Assembly: GCA_050246755.1 (NCBI GenBank)
Contig: JBFWVL010000001.1
Span: 160,001 to 224,000, forward strand
Reading direction: 5' to 3'
Source: Bacteriovoracia bacterium
GTDB lineage: Bacteria > Bdellovibrionota > UBA1018 > CAIPTA01
Length of the DNA: 64,000 bases
Part shown: in pieces, positions 38,986-45,327 of the stretch
Numbering within the stretch: the stretch's first letter is position 1
Layout: every line of letters begins with the position of its first letter
The notes under the pieces: generated by a model
What the model saw: only the letters and a program-made list of their open reading frames with translations
Databases searched by the model: none
What the model was told of the DNA's origin: nothing
Translations under genes and position numbers: made by a program

Positions 38986-39990
38986 ATGAGCCAACAAGCC
39001 TTTACCTACGACGACGTGCTTCTCGTTCCTAACTATAATAGCCATGAGTCCCGGCGCGCGGTGGATATTTCGATGAGCGATCGCTCGGGCAAGCTACGCC
39101 TCGATCTCCCCGTTTTCACCGCCAATATGGACTCGGTTACCGAGAGCGGAATGGCAAACTTCATCGGGGAGAAAGGCGGAATGGGCGTGCTCCACCGCTT
39201 TCTCTCGATTGAACAAAACGTGGAAGAATTCAAGAAGTGCTCCCATAAAACCTTCGTATCGATCGGCTGCTCCGAAGCGGATCTCGAACGAGCCGACGCC
39301 CTGCGCGCGGCGGGCGCAAATTATTTTTGCGTAGACGTGGCCCATGCCCACGGAAAATACGTGGGGAAAACCCTGAAGCGCCTCCGCGAATTCCTGCCCG
39401 ACGCCTGCCTCATGGCCGGCAACGTGGCCACCTACGCCGGGGCCGACTACCTCGCCTCCTGCGGAGCCGATATCATCAAAGTGGGAATCGGCGGCGGCTC
39501 CGTTTGTACCACGCGAATCAAAACCGGTTTCGGCGTTCCTAATCTCACGGCGATCAAAGAATGCGCAAAGGCCGACCGCTCCATTATCGCCGACGGCGGA
39601 ATCCGCACTCCCGGCGACGTGGTGAAAGCTCTCGCCTTCGGTGCCGACTTCGTGATGATCGGCGGAATGCTCGCCGGCACTCGCCCCACTCCAGGAAAGG
39701 TAATCGAGGCGAACGGCAAGAAAGCGAAGCAGTACCGCGGAATGGCGAGCTTCGAAGCGCAGCAGGATTTTTTAGGCGGAGTTCCCGAATGGAAAACCGC
39801 GGAGGGTGTGGCCGTTACCGTTCCCTACCGGGAAGACGAAGAGGCCATCATCGCGGACATCGTGGGTGGCTTACGCTCGGGCTTAACCTACGGCGGAGCG
39901 GCCACCATTAAGGAACTGCAGCGTAAGATGAATTACGTGATCGTGACGCAGGCGGGACGGATTGAAAGCATGGCGCATAAGGCGCTTTAA
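38986..39990 (+). CDS. guaC: GMP reductase (IMPDH/GMPR family, no CBS domains)
   Basis: TYDDVLLVP, ANMD, GIGGGSVCTTR, ADGG, YRGMAS; lacks the IMPDH flap Arg-Tyr dyad. Confidence 0.78.
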   Translation: MSQQAFTYDDVLLVPNYNSHESRRAVDISMSDRSGKLRLDLPVFTANMDSVTESGMANFIGEKGGMGVLHRFLSIEQNVEEFKKCSHKTFVSIGCSEADLERADALRAAGANYFCVDVAHAHGKYVGKTLKRLREFLPDACLMAGNVATYAGADYLASCGADIIKVGIGGGSVCTTRIKTGFGVPNLTAIKECAKADRSIIADGGIRTPGDVVKALAFGADFVMIGGMLAGTRPTPGKVIEANGKKAKQYRGMASFEAQQDFLGGVPEWKTAEGVAVTVPYREDEEAIIADIVGGLRSGLTYGGAATIKELQRKMNYVIVTQAGRIESMAHKAL

Positions 39991-39996
39991 TCCATT

Positions 39997-40177
39997 GTCG
40001 GTTGGCCGTTTGCGGTTATCGGTTAGCAGTGGGCGGCTAAAACAAAGCGGATGCGGATCTGATTCCGCCTTCTGTTCTCGGAAAAGAATTCTGATTGCCG
40101 AATCGGATCCGAAATCCAGCCCGATTCCGATTTCCGCGTTCCCACCGCCAACCGCAAACAGCCAATCGCCAACTGAC
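39997..40177. repeat. imperfect ~37-bp inverted repeat built from 7-mer units, with internal hairpins
   Basis: Left arm 39997-40033 is an imperfect reverse complement of 40141-40177 (AACCGCC-like heptamers). Confidence 0.7.
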
Positions 40178-40711
40178 CTACCCCTGCATCACCCCGATAT
40201 ACGGCAATTCACGGTAGGCCTGGGCGTAATCGAGGCCGAATCCGATCACGAACTCATTGCCGATGGAAAACCCTACGTATTCCACCTTCACGTCCACCTT
40301 GAGGGCCGCGGGCTTTTGCAAAAGCGAGCAGCAGGCGATCGACGCGGGATTTCTCACCTGAAAAAGATCGCGGATATATTTCAGGGTCAGGCCCGTGTCC
40401 ACGATATCCTCCACGATCAAAACGTCGCGGCCATCGAGCGGTGCCGTTACGTCGAGGGCTAATTTCACTTCACCCGAAGAAGTTTTTTCGTTGCCGTAAC
40501 TCGAGCAAGAAATGAACTCCACTTTCACGGGAACCTTCACCGCTCTCACGAGATCCGCGAAAAACAGGAAGCTGCCCTTCAGCACGCAGATCATGGTGAG
40601 CTCGCGCCCTTGATAATGGGCATTGATCTCCGCGGCCAATTCTGCCACGCGCTTAGCGATTTGTTCTTCGGAAATAAGTACGCGAATATTGGGTTTCATG
40701 GGCCCTTTCAT
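40178..40711 (-). CDS. hpt: hypoxanthine phosphoribosyltransferase (copy 2)
   Basis: VLKGSFLFFADL, VLIVEDIVDTGLTL, VIGFGLDY. Confidence 0.94.
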   Translation of the reverse strand: MKGPMKPNIRVLISEEQIAKRVAELAAEINAHYQGRELTMICVLKGSFLFFADLVRAVKVPVKVEFISCSSYGNEKTSSGEVKLALDVTAPLDGRDVLIVEDIVDTGLTLKYIRDLFQVRNPASIACCSLLQKPAALKVDVKVEYVGFSIGNEFVIGFGLDYAQAYRELPYIGVMQG

Positions 40712-40785
40712 ATGCCAAATAACCCTATAATTCCAGCGAACAAATCACCCTTCCCACTCAGGCGGGATTGCGGTATCCCTTTTGG

Positions 40786-41466
40786 ATGACTGCGCTTCGT
40801 AGCCGCTCCGAGCTTTTGGCCTGGATCCAGCAGAATCCGAAACTCAAGCCCTTGCTCGACCACATTTCCCAGCAAAACAGCGATGATTCCGCTCACGACC
40901 TCGCCCATTTGCTCCGGGTCGGTCTTTGGACCATGGAATTAGCGGGCTCCGCCGTGGAGCGCGAAGAGGCCGCCGCCGCCGCCCTCCTTCACGATCTGGT
41001 AAATATTCCCAAAGATCATCCCGATCGCGCGAAAGCCAGCGAGTTTTCGGCTAAAGCCGCGGTTCCCCTCCTGGAAAAATCGGGCTTCTCTTCCGAAGCC
41101 ATTACTCGCGTCACGGAAGCCATCCGGGATCATTCCTTCAGCCGGGGAGCTATTCCCGCCTCTCCACTGGGTAAAGCCCTGCAGGACGCTGATCGCCTCG
41201 AGGCCGTGGGCGCGATCGGCTTGATGCGGGTTTTCTCTACCGGCGTTCGCATGGGCGCCCGTTATTTCAATCCCGAAGACCCTTGGGCGAAAAATCGCCC
41301 CCTCGACGATAAAGCTTTTTCGGTAGACCATTTTTTCACGAAACTGCTTCGCCTCACTCCCTCGTTTCATACCGAGCTCGGGAAAAAAGAAGCCGCCCGC
41401 CGCACCGCCGTGCTGGAGAAATTTCTGGTGGATCTAGGAACCGAGATTGGGGAGCCCCAGCCATGA
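40786..41466 (+). CDS. HD-domain phosphohydrolase (YedJ-like)
   Basis: AHD..H..RV, LLHD, HSFS, QDADRLEA.GAIG. Confidence 0.9.
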   Translation: MTALRSRSELLAWIQQNPKLKPLLDHISQQNSDDSAHDLAHLLRVGLWTMELAGSAVEREEAAAAALLHDLVNIPKDHPDRAKASEFSAKAAVPLLEKSGFSSEAITRVTEAIRDHSFSRGAIPASPLGKALQDADRLEAVGAIGLMRVFSTGVRMGARYFNPEDPWAKNRPLDDKAFSVDHFFTKLLRLTPSFHTELGKKEAARRTAVLEKFLVDLGTEIGEPQP

Positions 41467-42134
41467 GACTGCTCGTAGTGGAAGACGAAAAGAAAATGGC
41501 CGGCTTTCTAAAAAAGGGCCTGATGGAAGCGGGCTATTCCGTGGACCACGCCGCCACGGGTACCTCCGCCGAGGCCCTCGCCAGCGAAAACATCTACGAC
41601 TGCATCGTGCTCGACGTAATGCTTCCCGACCAAACCGGCTTCGATACCGCCACCAATCTCCGCCGCGAGGGTTATGCCGGCCCGATTCTTTTCCTGAGCG
41701 CGCTTTCCGGCACCCGCGATAAGGTACGCGGACTCGACGCCGGCGCCGACGACTATTTGACCAAGCCCTTCTCCTTCGACGAACTGCTCGCCCGGGTGCG
41801 CGCCCTGCTCCGCCGGCAGAGCGACACGAAGAGCACCGTGATCCGTTTTGCCGAGATCGAGCTCGATCTCGTGAAGCGGAAAGTGCAGCGCGCCGGGCGG
41901 GAGCTCGATCTCACCGCCAAGGAGTTCGCGCTGCTCGAATATTTCATGCGCAATCCTAATAAGCCGCTTTCCCGCACCTCCATCGCAGAACACGTCTGGG
42001 ACGTGCACTTCGATTCCGACTCCAACGTGATCGACGTGTACGTGAATATGCTGCGGAAAAAACTGGGGCAAAAAGAGGAGAAACGCCTGATCCATACGAT
42101 CGTGGGCGTCGGCTATGTACTTCGCGAAGATTAA
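41463..42134 (+). CDS. OmpR-family response regulator (CusR/CzcR-like)
   Basis: MRLLVVEDE, GADDYLTKPF, SNVIDVYV. Confidence 0.93.
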   Translation: MRLLVVEDEKKMAGFLKKGLMEAGYSVDHAATGTSAEALASENIYDCIVLDVMLPDQTGFDTATNLRREGYAGPILFLSALSGTRDKVRGLDAGADDYLTKPFSFDELLARVRALLRRQSDTKSTVIRFAEIELDLVKRKVQRAGRELDLTAKEFALLEYFMRNPNKPLSRTSIAEHVWDVHFDSDSNVIDVYVNMLRKKLGQKEEKRLIHTIVGVGYVLRED

Positions 42135-43590
42135 GCCCTTCGTCTATAGCTTGCGCATGCGCCTCACGGCCCTTTATCTCGGCCTGCTCGCCGTCACGCT
42201 CGCGGTATTCTGCAGCGTGCTCTACCAAGTTTTCGTGCGTAATCACCAGCAAGAATTCGACTTTGCGCTCTATAACCACGCGGTAGACGTTTCCCGCTCC
42301 ATTACCGTCGATTTTTTCGGCGATCTCGTTTTCACGCCGAACGCTCTTTACTCGAAAGAAAAAGTTTTTCCTTTTTCCCTAGGAAAATCCTTCGCCCAGG
42401 TGGTTTCCCTCGAAGGCCAGGTAATCAATCCTTCTGAAAACCTCGGCAATGCCTACCTCCCGCTTTACACCGAGGATTGGCAGGAAGTATTCCGCCGCGG
42501 CCATACTTACCGCACGCTCGGCCCCAGCGAACTGAAGAACATCAAGGAAGCCCTGCCCAAGGAGAGCTATCGCCTCATCACCTACATGATTCGGCGGGGA
42601 AAACCCGTGTTCATCCTACAGATCGCCGTGCCTCTCACCCTGCTCGAGCGTGAGGCGGCCAGCCTGATCCTCTTCTTCGTGATCGGCGTTCCGATGGCGC
42701 TGATCTTGTTCGCCGTCTGCGGCCTTTACGTGGCCAATAAAGCGCTTGAGCCCGTGCGGGGGATCATCAAGAAAGCCTCGCAGCTGAATCCTTCCAATCT
42801 TTCGCAGCGCCTGCCCGAGCCCAATACGGAAGACGAAATTCGCCGCCTCACCGTTACGCTCAACGGATTGCTCGGCCGGATTGAGCGCGCCTTCGAGAGC
42901 CACGAGAATTTTATCGCCGATGCCTCCCACCAGCTGAAAACCCCCCTCGCCATTCTCCGCGGCGAGCTCGACGTCTTCCGCTCCAAGCCCCGCTCTCCGG
43001 AGGAGGTAGCGGCGCTGGTGAATTCCGCCTCTCAGGAACTGCATCATATGTCTCGCCTCCTCGATGATCTCCTGCTGCTGGCGAAGATCGATGCCGGCGC
43101 CGGCTCCCTCACCATGCGTAAGCTGCGCGTGGATGAACTAGTCGTAGAATGCGTGGCACGATTCGAAGTGCTCGCCAATAAAAAAAATATCTCCATTCGC
43201 TTCGATCTCGACGACCGCACCGAAGGCACCTCCGCCGACGATTTCCTCGTGGACGGCGACTCCGACCTTCTACAATCCATGTTTAGGAATCTCGTAGACA
43301 ACGCGATCAAATATTCCCCCGAAGGCACTCCCATCGAAGTGCGCGTGATCAACGAGGCCACCCGCGTGGTCACCCAGATCCGCGATTTCGGCGACGCCAT
43401 CGACCCGGAAACCGCCGAACGTCTTTTCCGACGCTACGAAAGAGGGAACTTGCTTGTGAGCACCGTGTCAGGAACGGGTTTAGGGCTTACTATCGCCCAG
43501 CGCATTGCCGAGCTTCATGGCGGTAACATATCGATTATTCAGGACAATTCTCCCGGAAAAGCCTTCCAAGTAGAGATGAAAAAGAATTAA
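42115..43590 (+). CDS. HAMP-domain sensor kinase (CusS-like)
   Basis: Two TM segments, HAMP, DASHQLKTPL, NAIKY, GTGLGL. Confidence 0.92.
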   Translation: MYFAKIKPFVYSLRMRLTALYLGLLAVTLAVFCSVLYQVFVRNHQQEFDFALYNHAVDVSRSITVDFFGDLVFTPNALYSKEKVFPFSLGKSFAQVVSLEGQVINPSENLGNAYLPLYTEDWQEVFRRGHTYRTLGPSELKNIKEALPKESYRLITYMIRRGKPVFILQIAVPLTLLEREAASLILFFVIGVPMALILFAVCGLYVANKALEPVRGIIKKASQLNPSNLSQRLPEPNTEDEIRRLTVTLNGLLGRIERAFESHENFIADASHQLKTPLAILRGELDVFRSKPRSPEEVAALVNSASQELHHMSRLLDDLLLLAKIDAGAGSLTMRKLRVDELVVECVARFEVLANKKNISIRFDLDDRTEGTSADDFLVDGDSDLLQSMFRNLVDNAIKYSPEGTPIEVRVINEATRVVTQIRDFGDAIDPETAERLFRRYERGNLLVSTVSGTGLGLTIAQRIAELHGGNISIIQDNSPGKAFQVEMKKN

Positions 43591-43636
43591 TACGCTTTTC
43601 ATCTCGTTTTAACCTCCCCCCGATATTGTCGTTCAC

Positions 43637-43965
43637 ATGGAAGCTTAATCGCTTCCCTTCCTGGAAACAGGACAACGGAAACGTTGAAACGAATGGAATG
43701 AAAAGGCGTGGCGATGAGTACAGGAAGGAAATTTAAGAAAGAGATTTACGTCGGGTTTCTCCTCTTTCTTTTATCCTTCCTGTACTTGTCGCATTTAAAC
43801 CAGGAATTCCAGCCAATTCACGCAGACGTAACTGCTCCCCCGTCCGCAAACACGGAGAAGCAGCCTAGTTAGGTACTACGGCCATACAAATAGTTTTCAT
43901 GCTCCCTCAGGGCTCAAGCGTCCAACCCTCCATCAACCACCAAACGCTTGGGCCCCCTTTATTTT
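43637..43965 (+). ncRNA. putative structured RNA (~330 nt), possibly dual-function with a 52-aa ORF
   Basis: Serial hairpins, a 19-bp stem 43711-43729/43774-43792 with G-U pairs on the plus strand, and a terminator with a C-rich loop. Confidence 0.6.
43714..43872 (+). CDS. putative 52-aa single-TM small protein
   Basis: MSTGRKFKKEIYVGFLLFLLSFLYLSHLN...; AAAAGG upstream; the start codon sits inside the long stem. Confidence 0.45.
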   Translation: MSTGRKFKKEIYVGFLLFLLSFLYLSHLNQEFQPIHADVTAPPSANTEKQPS

Positions 43966-44103
43966 CGCGGTTTGGGTCCTGAACTCGGTACCTGTTTCTG
44001 TGATTCCCTCTCTCAGTTAGCGGAGGCAGAATCGAAGGCGGGACTCAAACTGATTTTCTGCTCGCTTGCGCCCAAACTAAAAAAAGATAACACTGAACCT
44101 CGA

Positions 44104-45327
44104 ATGCGAATCCGCCAGGTCTTTTTTATCCTTTCTCTGACTCTATTTTCCATTCTTGCGTTGGAAGCCGCGGCGTTCCTCCTCGCGCTCGTTCTCCAGT
44201 TCGCTTTCTACGAAGACTGGGTCCCCATGGAAAAAAGGCCTCCCGTGGGCGTGCTGGCCAAACGGCTCGGCTTTCTCTACCAGGACCAAACCAAGAAATC
44301 GGATTTCGTGCTTTCTCCTTTTTTTGGGTTCAAGAATGCGGCCGGATCCATCAGAAGCTCCTTCGACGTGCTCGACCCTAAGGGCGAAAAAAGGCTGCTG
44401 GTAGGTCCGGAAGGCTTCGTAAAAAACAATTCGGACCCCGCCGATCCCGAGCTCGTGCCCAAAGACACTCCCCTCATCTTTATTTCGGGCGGCTCCCCCG
44501 TGGTCGGCTGGGGCGTGGATAAAAATGAAGATACCATTCCCGCCCTGCTGGCCGCCCGTTTAGCCCGCCGCTGCGAAAGCAGCTCCACCACTCCCCATTT
44601 TCGCGTCGTAAACGCCGGCGTGGCCGGCCACAACTCCTACATGGAACTGAATTATTTCAGCAGCGAACTCTCTTGGTATAAGCCGGTGGCCTGGATTCAG
44701 CTGAGCGGCATCAATGAAGCCTGGGTGATCGGCAAGCCATCCGGCTCTTTCGAAATCGACTACCACCGCAGCTGGATGAACTCTCCCATCGCCGACAAAG
44801 TTTTATTTTCCTCCTGGATGCCCGCCACCCAAAAGTTAGTTTCGATCTGGCTGCCCCTTTTATTTAAGAAACAAAATCCGACTTCGCTTGCGCCGAAATT
44901 CAGCGCCGGACTGAACCCCCGCTGGACGGAACGGACTTCTGCCCATTTTTTGCGAAATATCGCCCTAGCCGACGGTATCGCCAGCTCGCTAGGGGTAAAG
45001 CATTATTTCTTTTTCCAGCCCACCCAGGCCACCGACCAACGCGTGGCACCAAGGGCTGAGCTAGAAAGAAGATCCGTTACCATCCGGGAAAGTGCCTGGC
45101 CGCTTTTCCAAAGCCGTGCCCAGGCTTTCTACGACGAAGTGAGAACGGAATTGGCGTTCACGCATCAAAAAAATAATAACTGGCACGACCTCTCGAAAAT
45201 CTTCGATGGCGATGGCCACGAAATCTACTCCGATCCGCGCCACTACCTGCGCTACGGCAACGAAAAAATCGCGGCCGAAATGGAAAAGAAAATCTGGCCC
45301 AGCCTTCGCCAAATAATCTGTCACTAA
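44104..45327 (+). CDS. membrane-anchored SGNH/GDSL-like hydrolase
   Basis: N-terminal TM, GGS..G.G, VVNAGV.G, G.NE, D..H...GN. Confidence 0.78.
   Translation: MRIRQVFFILSLTLFSILALEAAAFLLALVLQFAFYEDWVPMEKRPPVGVLAKRLGFLYQDQTKKSDFVLSPFFGFKNAAGSIRSSFDVLDPKGEKRLLVGPEGFVKNNSDPADPELVPKDTPLIFISGGSPVVGWGVDKNEDTIPALLAARLARRCESSSTTPHFRVVNAGVAGHNSYMELNYFSSELSWYKPVAWIQLSGINEAWVIGKPSGSFEIDYHRSWMNSPIADKVLFSSWMPATQKLVSIWLPLLFKKQNPTSLAPKFSAGLNPRWTERTSAHFLRNIALADGIASSLGVKHYFFFQPTQATDQRVAPRAELERRSVTIRESAWPLFQSRAQAFYDEVRTELAFTHQKNNNWHDLSKIFDGDGHEIYSDPRHYLRYGNEKIAAEMEKKIWPSLRQIICH

Follow-up and report, generated by a model that had tools for sequence, protein, structure and literature searches.

What is produced from the few hundred nucleotides that directly follow a sensor histidine kinase gene in the genome of a Bacteriovoracia bacterium (GenBank assembly GCA_050246755.1, contig JBFWVL010000001.1)? 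The question was raised by an earlier note on 64,000 nucleotides of this contig (positions 160,001 to 224,000 of the forward strand; hereafter the window, whose numbering we use throughout), which described, from the letters alone, a structured RNA that is linked to a two-component system and hides the start of a small membrane protein. Every element listed in that note is found in its place when the sequence is read again. Comparison with related loci supports the open reading frame (ORF), the hairpin that buries its start codon, the hairpins of the 5′ leader, the terminator, a set of repeats at the putative promoter, the constant gene order, and the co-occurrence of the ORF with the kinase. 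The reading that we favor, and hold with middling confidence, is that the region specifies a regulator-activated mRNA of ∼330 nucleotides (nt), the output of a CusRS-like two-component system, that encodes a small peptide of the inner membrane and in which a hairpin formed from the coding sequence itself gates translation.

The small coding sequence and the hairpin that it forms

The frame of the small ORF (see Table 1 for coordinates) is open in all seven genomes examined and encodes 51–70 amino acids (aa) from a conserved AUG. Everything past codon 28 is unalignable and differs in length, the tails comprising 23–42 further open codons. We estimate that seven open, unalignable tails of at least 23 codons would arise by chance with a probability of ∼1e-3, assuming ∼4% stop codons per random codon and independence of the tails. 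Among the 28 conserved codons, variable columns fall at the third position in 18 cases, versus 12 and 9 at positions 1 and 2. Word-index and exhaustive HMMER searches yielded nine metagenome homologues, and among 1.84 billion proteins there are 28 cluster representatives of 51–87 aa that share a common core (consensus KExYVGFLLxxLxFLYLSHL), none of them named. Across 29 sequences, residues E10, Y12, G14, F15, L16, F22 and L23 are invariant and L17, Y24, L25 and S26 nearly so, while no column past residue 28 is conserved. The peptide matches no Pfam family (E ≤ 0.001) and no NCBIfam family, the sole name found for it is “hypothetical protein”, and its best score in the ESM Atlas (0.81) is uninformative. 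These comparisons indicate that the small ORF is real and under selection, and that its product represents an unannotated small-protein family (the 28 cluster representatives) tied to one kinase family. The product is predicted to be an N-in single-pass membrane protein because its basic N-terminus (MSTGRKFKKE) precedes a hydrophobic run of 18–20 residues, in line with the single-span 52-aa ORF noted earlier.

Among the genomes compared, the unit is conserved and confined to one family of uncultured Bdellovibrionales, where it lies directly 3′ of an operon for an HD-domain hydrolase, an OmpR-type response regulator and a CusS-like kinase. A DNA search of 61 genomes found homologous DNA directly 3′ of the kinase gene in six of the eight genomes of this family (all five of the same genus and one of another genus), and in none of the 52 genomes from other families of the class. 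A profile of the peptide, run against 127 genomes of the class, also detected G008 (E 3.3e-7), a more distant member of the family, so that seven of the eight family genomes carry the unit. Six weak profile matches in family f4 (E 1e-3 to 1e-2; frames of 41–926 aa) were dismissed as noise from the table of matches alone. A kinase orthologue is present in the same seven genomes as the small ORF; in the eighth, G006, none was found at E ≤ 1e-40, and the small ORF is missing too. The order hydrolase, regulator, kinase, small ORF is kept in every relative's locus with enough flanking sequence. The region is single copy in its own genome, and further copies of the unit are found on two metagenome contigs; a third match in the metagenome scan (L018) was a false positive. 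Three observations support the proposed link to the neighboring two-component system: the constant position after the kinase gene, the co-occurrence (seven genomes with both genes, one with neither), and the three conserved repeats with variable spacers that are described below.

The RNA from 43630 to 43965 (336 nt) folds at −116.5 kcal/mol, compared with −81.5 ± 5.2 kcal/mol for 100 dinucleotide shuffles (z −6.73), none of which folds as well. Its largest element is an 82-nt hairpin in which the outer stem takes up the ATG in its 5′ arm and the inner stem pairs K/E codons with L-L-F codons. This hairpin has a predicted stability of −42.3 kcal/mol here and of −37.0 to −45.9 kcal/mol in all nine sequences of the alignment (A2) that forms the basis of the structure test. 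The outer stem is represented by 18 aligned pairs with 98.8% of cells paired, 17 of which contain no unpaired cell and three of which show compensatory double changes; five of the nine inner-stem pairs carry double changes. Over the whole structure, 94.0% of cells are paired, versus 46–49% when the partners are slid by 1–3 columns, and 11 pairs have changed on both sides. None of 500 shuffles matches the pairing, double-change or covariation values.

The way in which the stem is preserved is seen in two relatives. In G001, the replacement S2G (AGU to GGU) is offset in the stem partner, where a Leu codon has changed synonymously from UUA to CUA, and in G007, T3M (ACA to AUG) is offset by a synonymous CUG to CUA change together with a G-U pair. 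In the sequences aligned, synonymous changes in the 3′ arm of the hairpin make up for amino acid changes in the 5′ arm. The 19-bp stem that had been noted at the ATG therefore covaries and is stable in nine of nine sequences, and the RNA was correctly described as a structured mRNA that encodes a small membrane protein and has a sequestered start, since both the ORF and the start-burying stem are under selection. The apical loop carries the invariant sequence GUCGGGUUUCU. Within this loop, GTCGGGTTTCT (43750–43760) is invariant in all nine sequences, including three third-codon positions (Val, Gly and Phe), which may reflect a constraint on the loop at the RNA level.

Upstream of the ORF, leader hairpins 1 and 2 form in nine of nine relatives with differing sequences, and hairpin 3 in approximately six or seven. 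Helix 1 covaries, and GAAA tetraloops are common in the leader hairpins of relatives. The hairpins are followed by a conserved single strand, AACGUUGAAACGAAUGGAAUGAAAAGGCGUG, and a Shine-Dalgarno (SD) sequence, AAGG (43703–43706), 7 nt before the AUG; the block AACGTTG...AGGCG is invariant (9/9). The Rfam scan that the earlier note had proposed returned no bacterial family, with sub-threshold matches to microRNA precursors on the long hairpin (18–27 bits versus gathering scores of 62–100) and two more sub-threshold matches elsewhere in the scanned stretch.

A conserved CAUGG near the 5′ end (43637–43648 region) opens upstream frames of 3 codons here and 17 codons in G003 and mg17. This AUG was rejected as a conserved upstream ORF, given a length that ranges from 3 to ∼30 codons and its absence in G005. 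In the metagenome protein P0019, its frame is fused in frame to the peptide.

Promoter, terminator and RNA contigs

Immediately preceding the leader are three direct repeats, the first of which overlaps the kinase stop codon. Their consensus sequences, (A/T)TTTAAT, TTTTCAT and (T/C)TTTAA(C/T), are conserved in all nine aligned relatives and in G008, and the intervening 4-nt spacers vary. The −10 element is kept at a fixed distance from the repeats, with its T, A and final T invariant in nine of nine (TAnnnT). No −35 consensus is found 17 bp upstream of the −10 element, where the sequence is ATCTCG, and for this reason a sigma-70 consensus scan, which requires a −35 element, did not flag the promoter. 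The box of OmpR type with a TATTGT −10 element that had been proposed from the single sequence is thus fixed in geometry and conserved in its repeats across relatives. Direct repeats at about one helical turn, placed beside or overlapping the −35 position, are the arrangement of OmpR/PhoB-type promoters. In PhoB-type promoters the box replaces the −35 element, with two 7-bp direct repeats at 11-bp phasing that end ∼10 bp before the −10 element. The present promoter is similar in that 7-bp repeats at 11-bp spacing end 10 bp before TATTGT with no −35 consensus. However, the repeat sequence, TTT(T/A)(C/A)A(T/C), is not that of the Pho box, and the regulator here is nearest to the CusR/CopR subfamily, whose box is palindromic. 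We infer that the adjacent regulator binds these repeats. A two-repeat box pattern occurs at three sites in the genome, this locus included, where 0.64 are expected.

Two other pairings involve the same stretch. A perfect 10-bp inverted repeat, GAGATGAAAA / TTTTCATCTC (43573–43582 / 43596–43605), spans the kinase stop codon; 7–10 of its 10 pairs are kept in relatives, with no compensatory change. In addition, CTTTTCAT in repeat 2 (43595–43602) is complementary to AUGAAAAG (43698–43705), just 5′ of the SD sequence. RNAalifold pairs both, and the two sides are invariant and so show no covariation. This pairing would be relevant only to a read-through transcript from the kinase gene.

At the 3′ end, the intrinsic terminator noted earlier is present with its 22-nt loop (43922–43943), which contains CCCTCCATC, and with CCTTTATTTT after the stem. 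The stem covaries (14 aligned pairs, 95.5% paired, six with double changes), and an 11-nt loop core, ACCCUCCAUCA (43925–43935), is invariant in eight of eight sequences. All eight have T-rich tails after the stem, which together with the GC-rich stem is the form expected of an intrinsic terminator. The loop is atypically large, at 22–31 nt across relatives, and the consensus scan did not flag the terminator because the loop exceeds the 8-nt limit of that scan. A covariance model of the terminator (R1) finds one copy per genome in seven family genomes, at 74–88 bits, and no second copy among the 127 class genomes. Matches outside the family reach at most 33 bits and, in the eight inspected, are ordinary terminators, except for that in G122. 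Inspected by eye, the loop can pair to the leader or the apical loop over just 4–5 bp, and these pairings are not conserved.

The exception, G122, belongs to another family of the same class and carries a terminator-like hairpin (L124:1501–1596; 31 bits with model R1) between a gene for a 182-aa helix-turn-helix/lysine-rich protein and rpsF. Its large loop holds CCCCTCCATCAAAC, with the same core as the invariant loop. DNA homologous to this hairpin was not found in the nine other genomes of that family, and the common core may reflect chance or a shared seed. In G008 (L026), an extra 88-aa ORF with its own SD sequence, AAGGAG, stands between the small ORF and the terminator with the C-rich loop, and has a weak, sub-threshold likeness to S30AE/HPF ribosome hibernation factors (19.1 bits versus a cut-off of 23.7). 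In several loci of the same genus, a word resembling GAAAGGAG stands where this ORF would be, with no ORF there, and the word may be a remnant.

Hints of expression come from four metatranscriptome runs from three studies (soil, marine and sludge), which were compared with 43400–44100. Each run contains one short contig of 221–267 nt, 90–95% alike, that covers just 43656–43814, 43656–43829 or 43656–43870. One of the contigs has 24 extra 5′ letters that resemble the start of hairpin 1. No contig aligns to the kinase gene upstream (43400–43655) and none reaches the terminator, absences that we do not count as evidence. At most, the contigs point weakly to a discrete and abundant RNA that begins close to the predicted start and is distinct from the kinase mRNA. 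A search of sequencing runs also located the stretch in DNA from landfill and wastewater metagenomes, and a few words of it in several metatranscriptomes.

Table 1. Features of the locus and of its surroundings, in window coordinates
Feature	Position	Strand	Details
HD-domain hydrolase gene	40768–41466	+	start of regulator gene overlaps hydrolase stop
OmpR/PhoB-type response regulator gene	41463–42134	+	Pfam Response_reg and Trans_reg_C
Sensor histidine kinase gene, 491 aa	42115–43590	+	Pfam HAMP, HisKA, HATPase; two transmembrane helices, periplasmic domain
Three 7-bp direct repeats, putative response-regulator box	43585–43613	+	AATTAAT 43585–43591, TTTTCAT 43596–43602, TTTTAAC 43607–43613; start-to-start 11 and 11 bp
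−10 element TATTGT (putative)	43624–43629	+	10 bp after last repeat
5′ leader with three small hairpins	43636–43710	+	predicted start near 43633–43637; GGAAGC/GCTTCC 43639–43656, CCTG-GAAA-CAGG 43660–43671, CAACG-GAAA-CGTTG 43674–43687
Start-burying 82-nt hairpin	43711–43792	+	fold and covariation in nine-sequence alignment; outer 19-bp stem 43711–43729 / 43774–43792, ATG at 43714; inner stem 43735–43743 / 43762–43770
Small ORF, 52 aa and stop	43714–43872	+	begins MSTGRKFKKEIYVGFLLFLLSFLYLSHL; basic N-terminus, one predicted transmembrane helix, variable C-terminal tail
Intrinsic terminator	43910–43966	+	12-bp stem 43910–43921 / 43944–43955; U-tract 43956–43966
Unrelated 407-aa ORF, 3′ of unit	44104–45327	+	no Pfam or NCBIfam family

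Possible functions of the peptide and of the RNA

A sequence of events that would account for these features begins with binding of the phosphorylated regulator to the three phased repeats, which would take the place of a −35 element. Transcription would then begin near 43636, a position to which the RNA contigs lend a weak hint, and end near 43965, at the terminator. The RNA might be stabilized by a hairpin that lies no more than a few nucleotides from the 5′ end and by the two GNRA-capped hairpins that follow. In the folded RNA the SD sequence would stay free, while the AUG and codons 1–5 would pair with codons 21–26 in the hairpin of about −42 kcal/mol. Loading of ribosomes would therefore be confined to nascent RNA whose 3′ stem arm, 60–78 nt past the AUG, has yet to be made, or to RNA in which the stem has been opened or cut, and each transcript might give a short pulse of peptide. 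The peptide is expected to insert N-in, with the invariant face of its transmembrane segment (E10, Y12, G14, F15, L16, F22 and L23) perhaps contacting the kinase. Synteny and co-occurrence suggest that it probably acts on the adjacent, co-inherited kinase, as a feedback element or connector comparable to MgrB acting on PhoQ. The folded RNA would still display the invariant C-rich, anti-SD-like terminator loop, which may add a function at the RNA level. A prediction of the complex of two copies of kinase residues 1–265 with the peptide scored 0.00, with a predicted local distance difference test value (pLDDT) below 50 for the partner, and was used neither for nor against such a contact.

Among systems already described, the unit appears most like the gene of a small membrane peptide induced by a two-component system, as is MgrB, and possibly like a dual-function RNA of the SgrS/SgrT kind. 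Tests of sequence membership gave no match, and the unit is for that reason a member of neither family. MgrB is described, in PMC2789325 and bioRxiv 10.1101/438515, as a 47-aa membrane peptide that is activated by PhoP and inhibits PhoQ. The present gene likewise encodes a small peptide with one predicted membrane span, is an apparent two-component output, and is a candidate for feedback on a sensor kinase; however, the two peptides have no sequence relation, and the peptide here belongs to none of the Pfam or NCBIfam families. In MgrB, the periplasmic cysteines are conserved and the periplasmic tail is functional. In contrast, the 52-aa protein has no Cys and a periplasmic tail that is not conserved, its conservation lying in the transmembrane segment. 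A further difference is that the gene directly follows that of its kinase and yields an mRNA whose start is locked in the conserved 82-nt hairpin.

Several observations weigh against this reading. The proposed action of the peptide on the kinase is drawn from neighborhood and co-occurrence, and the peptide matches no family in Pfam or NCBIfam, the families of known kinase-binding peptides included. Of the three genomic sites with the box pattern, one is this locus and none lies beside the operon itself, so that neither a regulon nor autoregulation backs the assignment of the box to the regulator. Moreover, TTTTCAT, the second repeat, is also the 3′ arm of the inverted repeat formed with the last codons of the kinase gene, and part of the box could instead be a hairpin or weak terminator of the kinase operon, or a palindromic site. 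Nonetheless, where the 5′ arm of the inverted repeat has changed (ATG to ATT, in G007 and G008), TTTTCAT is unchanged, which favors a protein-binding site over a hairpin. The conservation of FLYLS in the peptide is confounded with that of the 3′ arm of the stem. The RNA contigs derive from relatives and are contigs rather than reads, which leaves their ends unproven, and DNA may be present in RNA libraries. Finally, the distant G008 has neither the three-hairpin leader nor the same start-burying stem, and thus gating is not universal in the family. This relative retains the box, the peptide core EIYLGFLLLVLAFLLF and a terminator loop containing CCCUCCA, and its small ORF appears to start at the 5′-proximal AUG.

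The earlier note had offered three alternatives for the function of the RNA, one of which, a dual-function small RNA (sRNA), is a possibility. Dual-function RNAs such as SgrS/SgrT, RNAIII/hld, SR1/SR1P and AzuCR are known, and the class is described in bioRxiv 10.1101/2021.06.30.450655. The present transcript resembles them in being short, with a 5′ small ORF under purifying selection (frame kept in seven of seven genomes, 28 representatives) and, near its 3′ terminator, a conserved single-stranded element that could base-pair, namely the 11-nt loop core (8/8) in a covarying stem. It differs in that no target is predicted, that the putative seed is part of the terminator loop, and that the ORF itself forms the main structure. 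Riboregulation could even be the main role, with the transcript or a 3′ cleavage fragment pairing to ribosome-binding sites through ACCCUCCAUCA and the peptide being secondary, although we consider this unlikely. The loop core is invariant while six of 14 pairs of the terminator stem covary, the CCCUCCA loop persists in G008 despite the extra ORF inserted before it, and short RNA contigs in four of four runs would be expected from an abundant small RNA. Hfq was not found in the genome, which would fit chaperone-independent pairing by a C-rich loop, as reported in PMC6486639 for the mycobacterial 6C sRNA. As in 6C and the other C-rich-loop sRNAs, an exposed C-rich loop could here pair with G-rich ribosome-binding sites without Hfq; in this case, however, it is a single loop in the terminator of a coding transcript, with no Rfam match and in a different phylum. 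RsaE/RoxS are among these C-rich-loop sRNAs. A search for targets, by a k-mer scan of the own genome and a family-wide search with the 10-mer TGATGGAGGG, gives weak negative evidence, since it covered perfect or near-perfect seeds only. GAU before GGAGG is not enriched at putative SD sequences (11/1285, rank 48/64). The 10-mer occurs at 76 sites in nine genomes, including the seven loci themselves, versus 15 for a reversed control, and 70 of the 76 were read (those left out are G004 C67 and C121, G003 C206, G005 C250, G002 C47 and G001 C227; G007 is complete). Of the sites read, 67 are outside the locus, most lie inside ORFs at conserved protein motifs, and no translation-start site recurs in at least three genomes. 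Motif sites are as numerous in G006, where the locus is missing, as in the carriers. The best candidate target of the loop in its own genome, an HPt-like gene, was rejected, as its orthologue is found in one relative only and without the site. At the starts of the hydrolase, regulator, kinase, small ORF and downstream genes, the loop pairs no better than background (−9.9 ± 4.4 kcal/mol), and the RNA contigs stop short of the terminator. The earlier guess thus keeps its invariant terminator loop and lacks a conserved target. A bifunctional RNA, induced by the two-component system, that combines the two roles is rather doubtful: after a nascent pulse of kinase-modulating peptide, the start would be locked in the hairpin, which would serve as a switch from mRNA to sRNA, and the RNA, whole or after RNase III-type cleavage, would act as an Hfq-independent riboregulator whose invariant anti-SD-like loop would silence ribosome-binding sites.

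The remaining two alternatives fit less well. In hok, tisB, zorO and aapA1, type I toxin mRNAs have sequestered starts, and the present unit could by analogy encode a membrane-damaging peptide that its start-burying hairpin keeps untranslated, as in hok/tisB mRNAs, a reading that we regard as quite improbable. The likeness is a small hydrophobic peptide, with a single predicted membrane span, a basic N-terminus and no known family, that is encoded by a very stable, highly structured and translationally closed primary transcript. Yet the locus is single copy and strictly syntenic with one kinase across the family, its promoter bears repeats of the regulator-dependent type, and no antitoxin RNA was found. 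A scan of 43000–44600 detected no promoter-like site on either strand, the sole terminator-like match on the minus strand being one weak 5-bp stem, and there is no conservation between ORF stop and terminator, the expected location of an antisense promoter. Moreover, the peptide matches no known toxin family in Pfam or NCBIfam. The type I toxin of the earlier note agrees with the sequestered-start mRNA and the small peptide, but is a poor fit in synteny, copy number and the lack of a visible antisense promoter. Least probable of all is that the GGA words of the leader titrate CsrA, or place the mRNA under its control. A csrA gene, for which the earlier note had suggested looking, is present in the genome (90.9 bits). 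The RNA from 43636 to 43965 has nine GGA words, in agreement with the earlier count, and seven of them lie in the first 97 nt, a mild excess over shuffled sequences (4.0 ± 1.25; 43 of 2000 shuffles reach seven). A GGA just upstream of the SD sequence is kept in eight of nine leaders. However, the count per leader is just 2–5 and variable, and the loop GGAs, which a sponge would be expected to conserve, are lost from hairpin 2 in three of nine relatives (6/9 keep it) and from hairpin 3 in four (5/9 keep it), while the GNRA-type loops and stems are kept. Rfam families of the CsrB/RsmY/RsmZ type gave no match at E up to 10, and G008 has no leader altogether. The idea of a sponge is accordingly disfavored.

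What sets the locus apart, as judged from these alignments, is a start-burying hairpin in coding sequence that is maintained by synonymous compensation, together with an invariant terminator loop. A non-exhaustive literature search found no description of it. A few model bacteria are known to have small membrane peptides that modulate sensor kinases, or RNAs with coding as well as regulatory roles, and to our knowledge almost nothing of the kind has been described for lineages of predatory bacteria. Here, three layers of constraint (regulator box, peptide and RNA structure) would be superimposed on ∼330 nt, which offers a testable model of a coding sequence that also serves to lock its own translation. 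Should the peptide act on the kinase, feedback of the MgrB type might have been invented independently here; should the loop pair in trans, the unit might be a new dual-function RNA.

Neighboring genes

The regulator is nearest to the CusR/CopR/SilR subfamily in NCBIfam (TIGR01387; 248 bits, under the cut-off of 279.2), and the kinase is nearest to the CusS/CopS subfamily (TIGR01386; 207.7 bits, under the cut-off of 292.55). Upstream of the operon, a 166-aa ORF (39962–40462) belongs to neither a Pfam nor an NCBIfam family. The 407-aa ORF downstream does not adjoin the unit in relatives whose loci were compared with enough flanking sequence, and in the window it is followed on the plus strand by an MHYT kinase gene.

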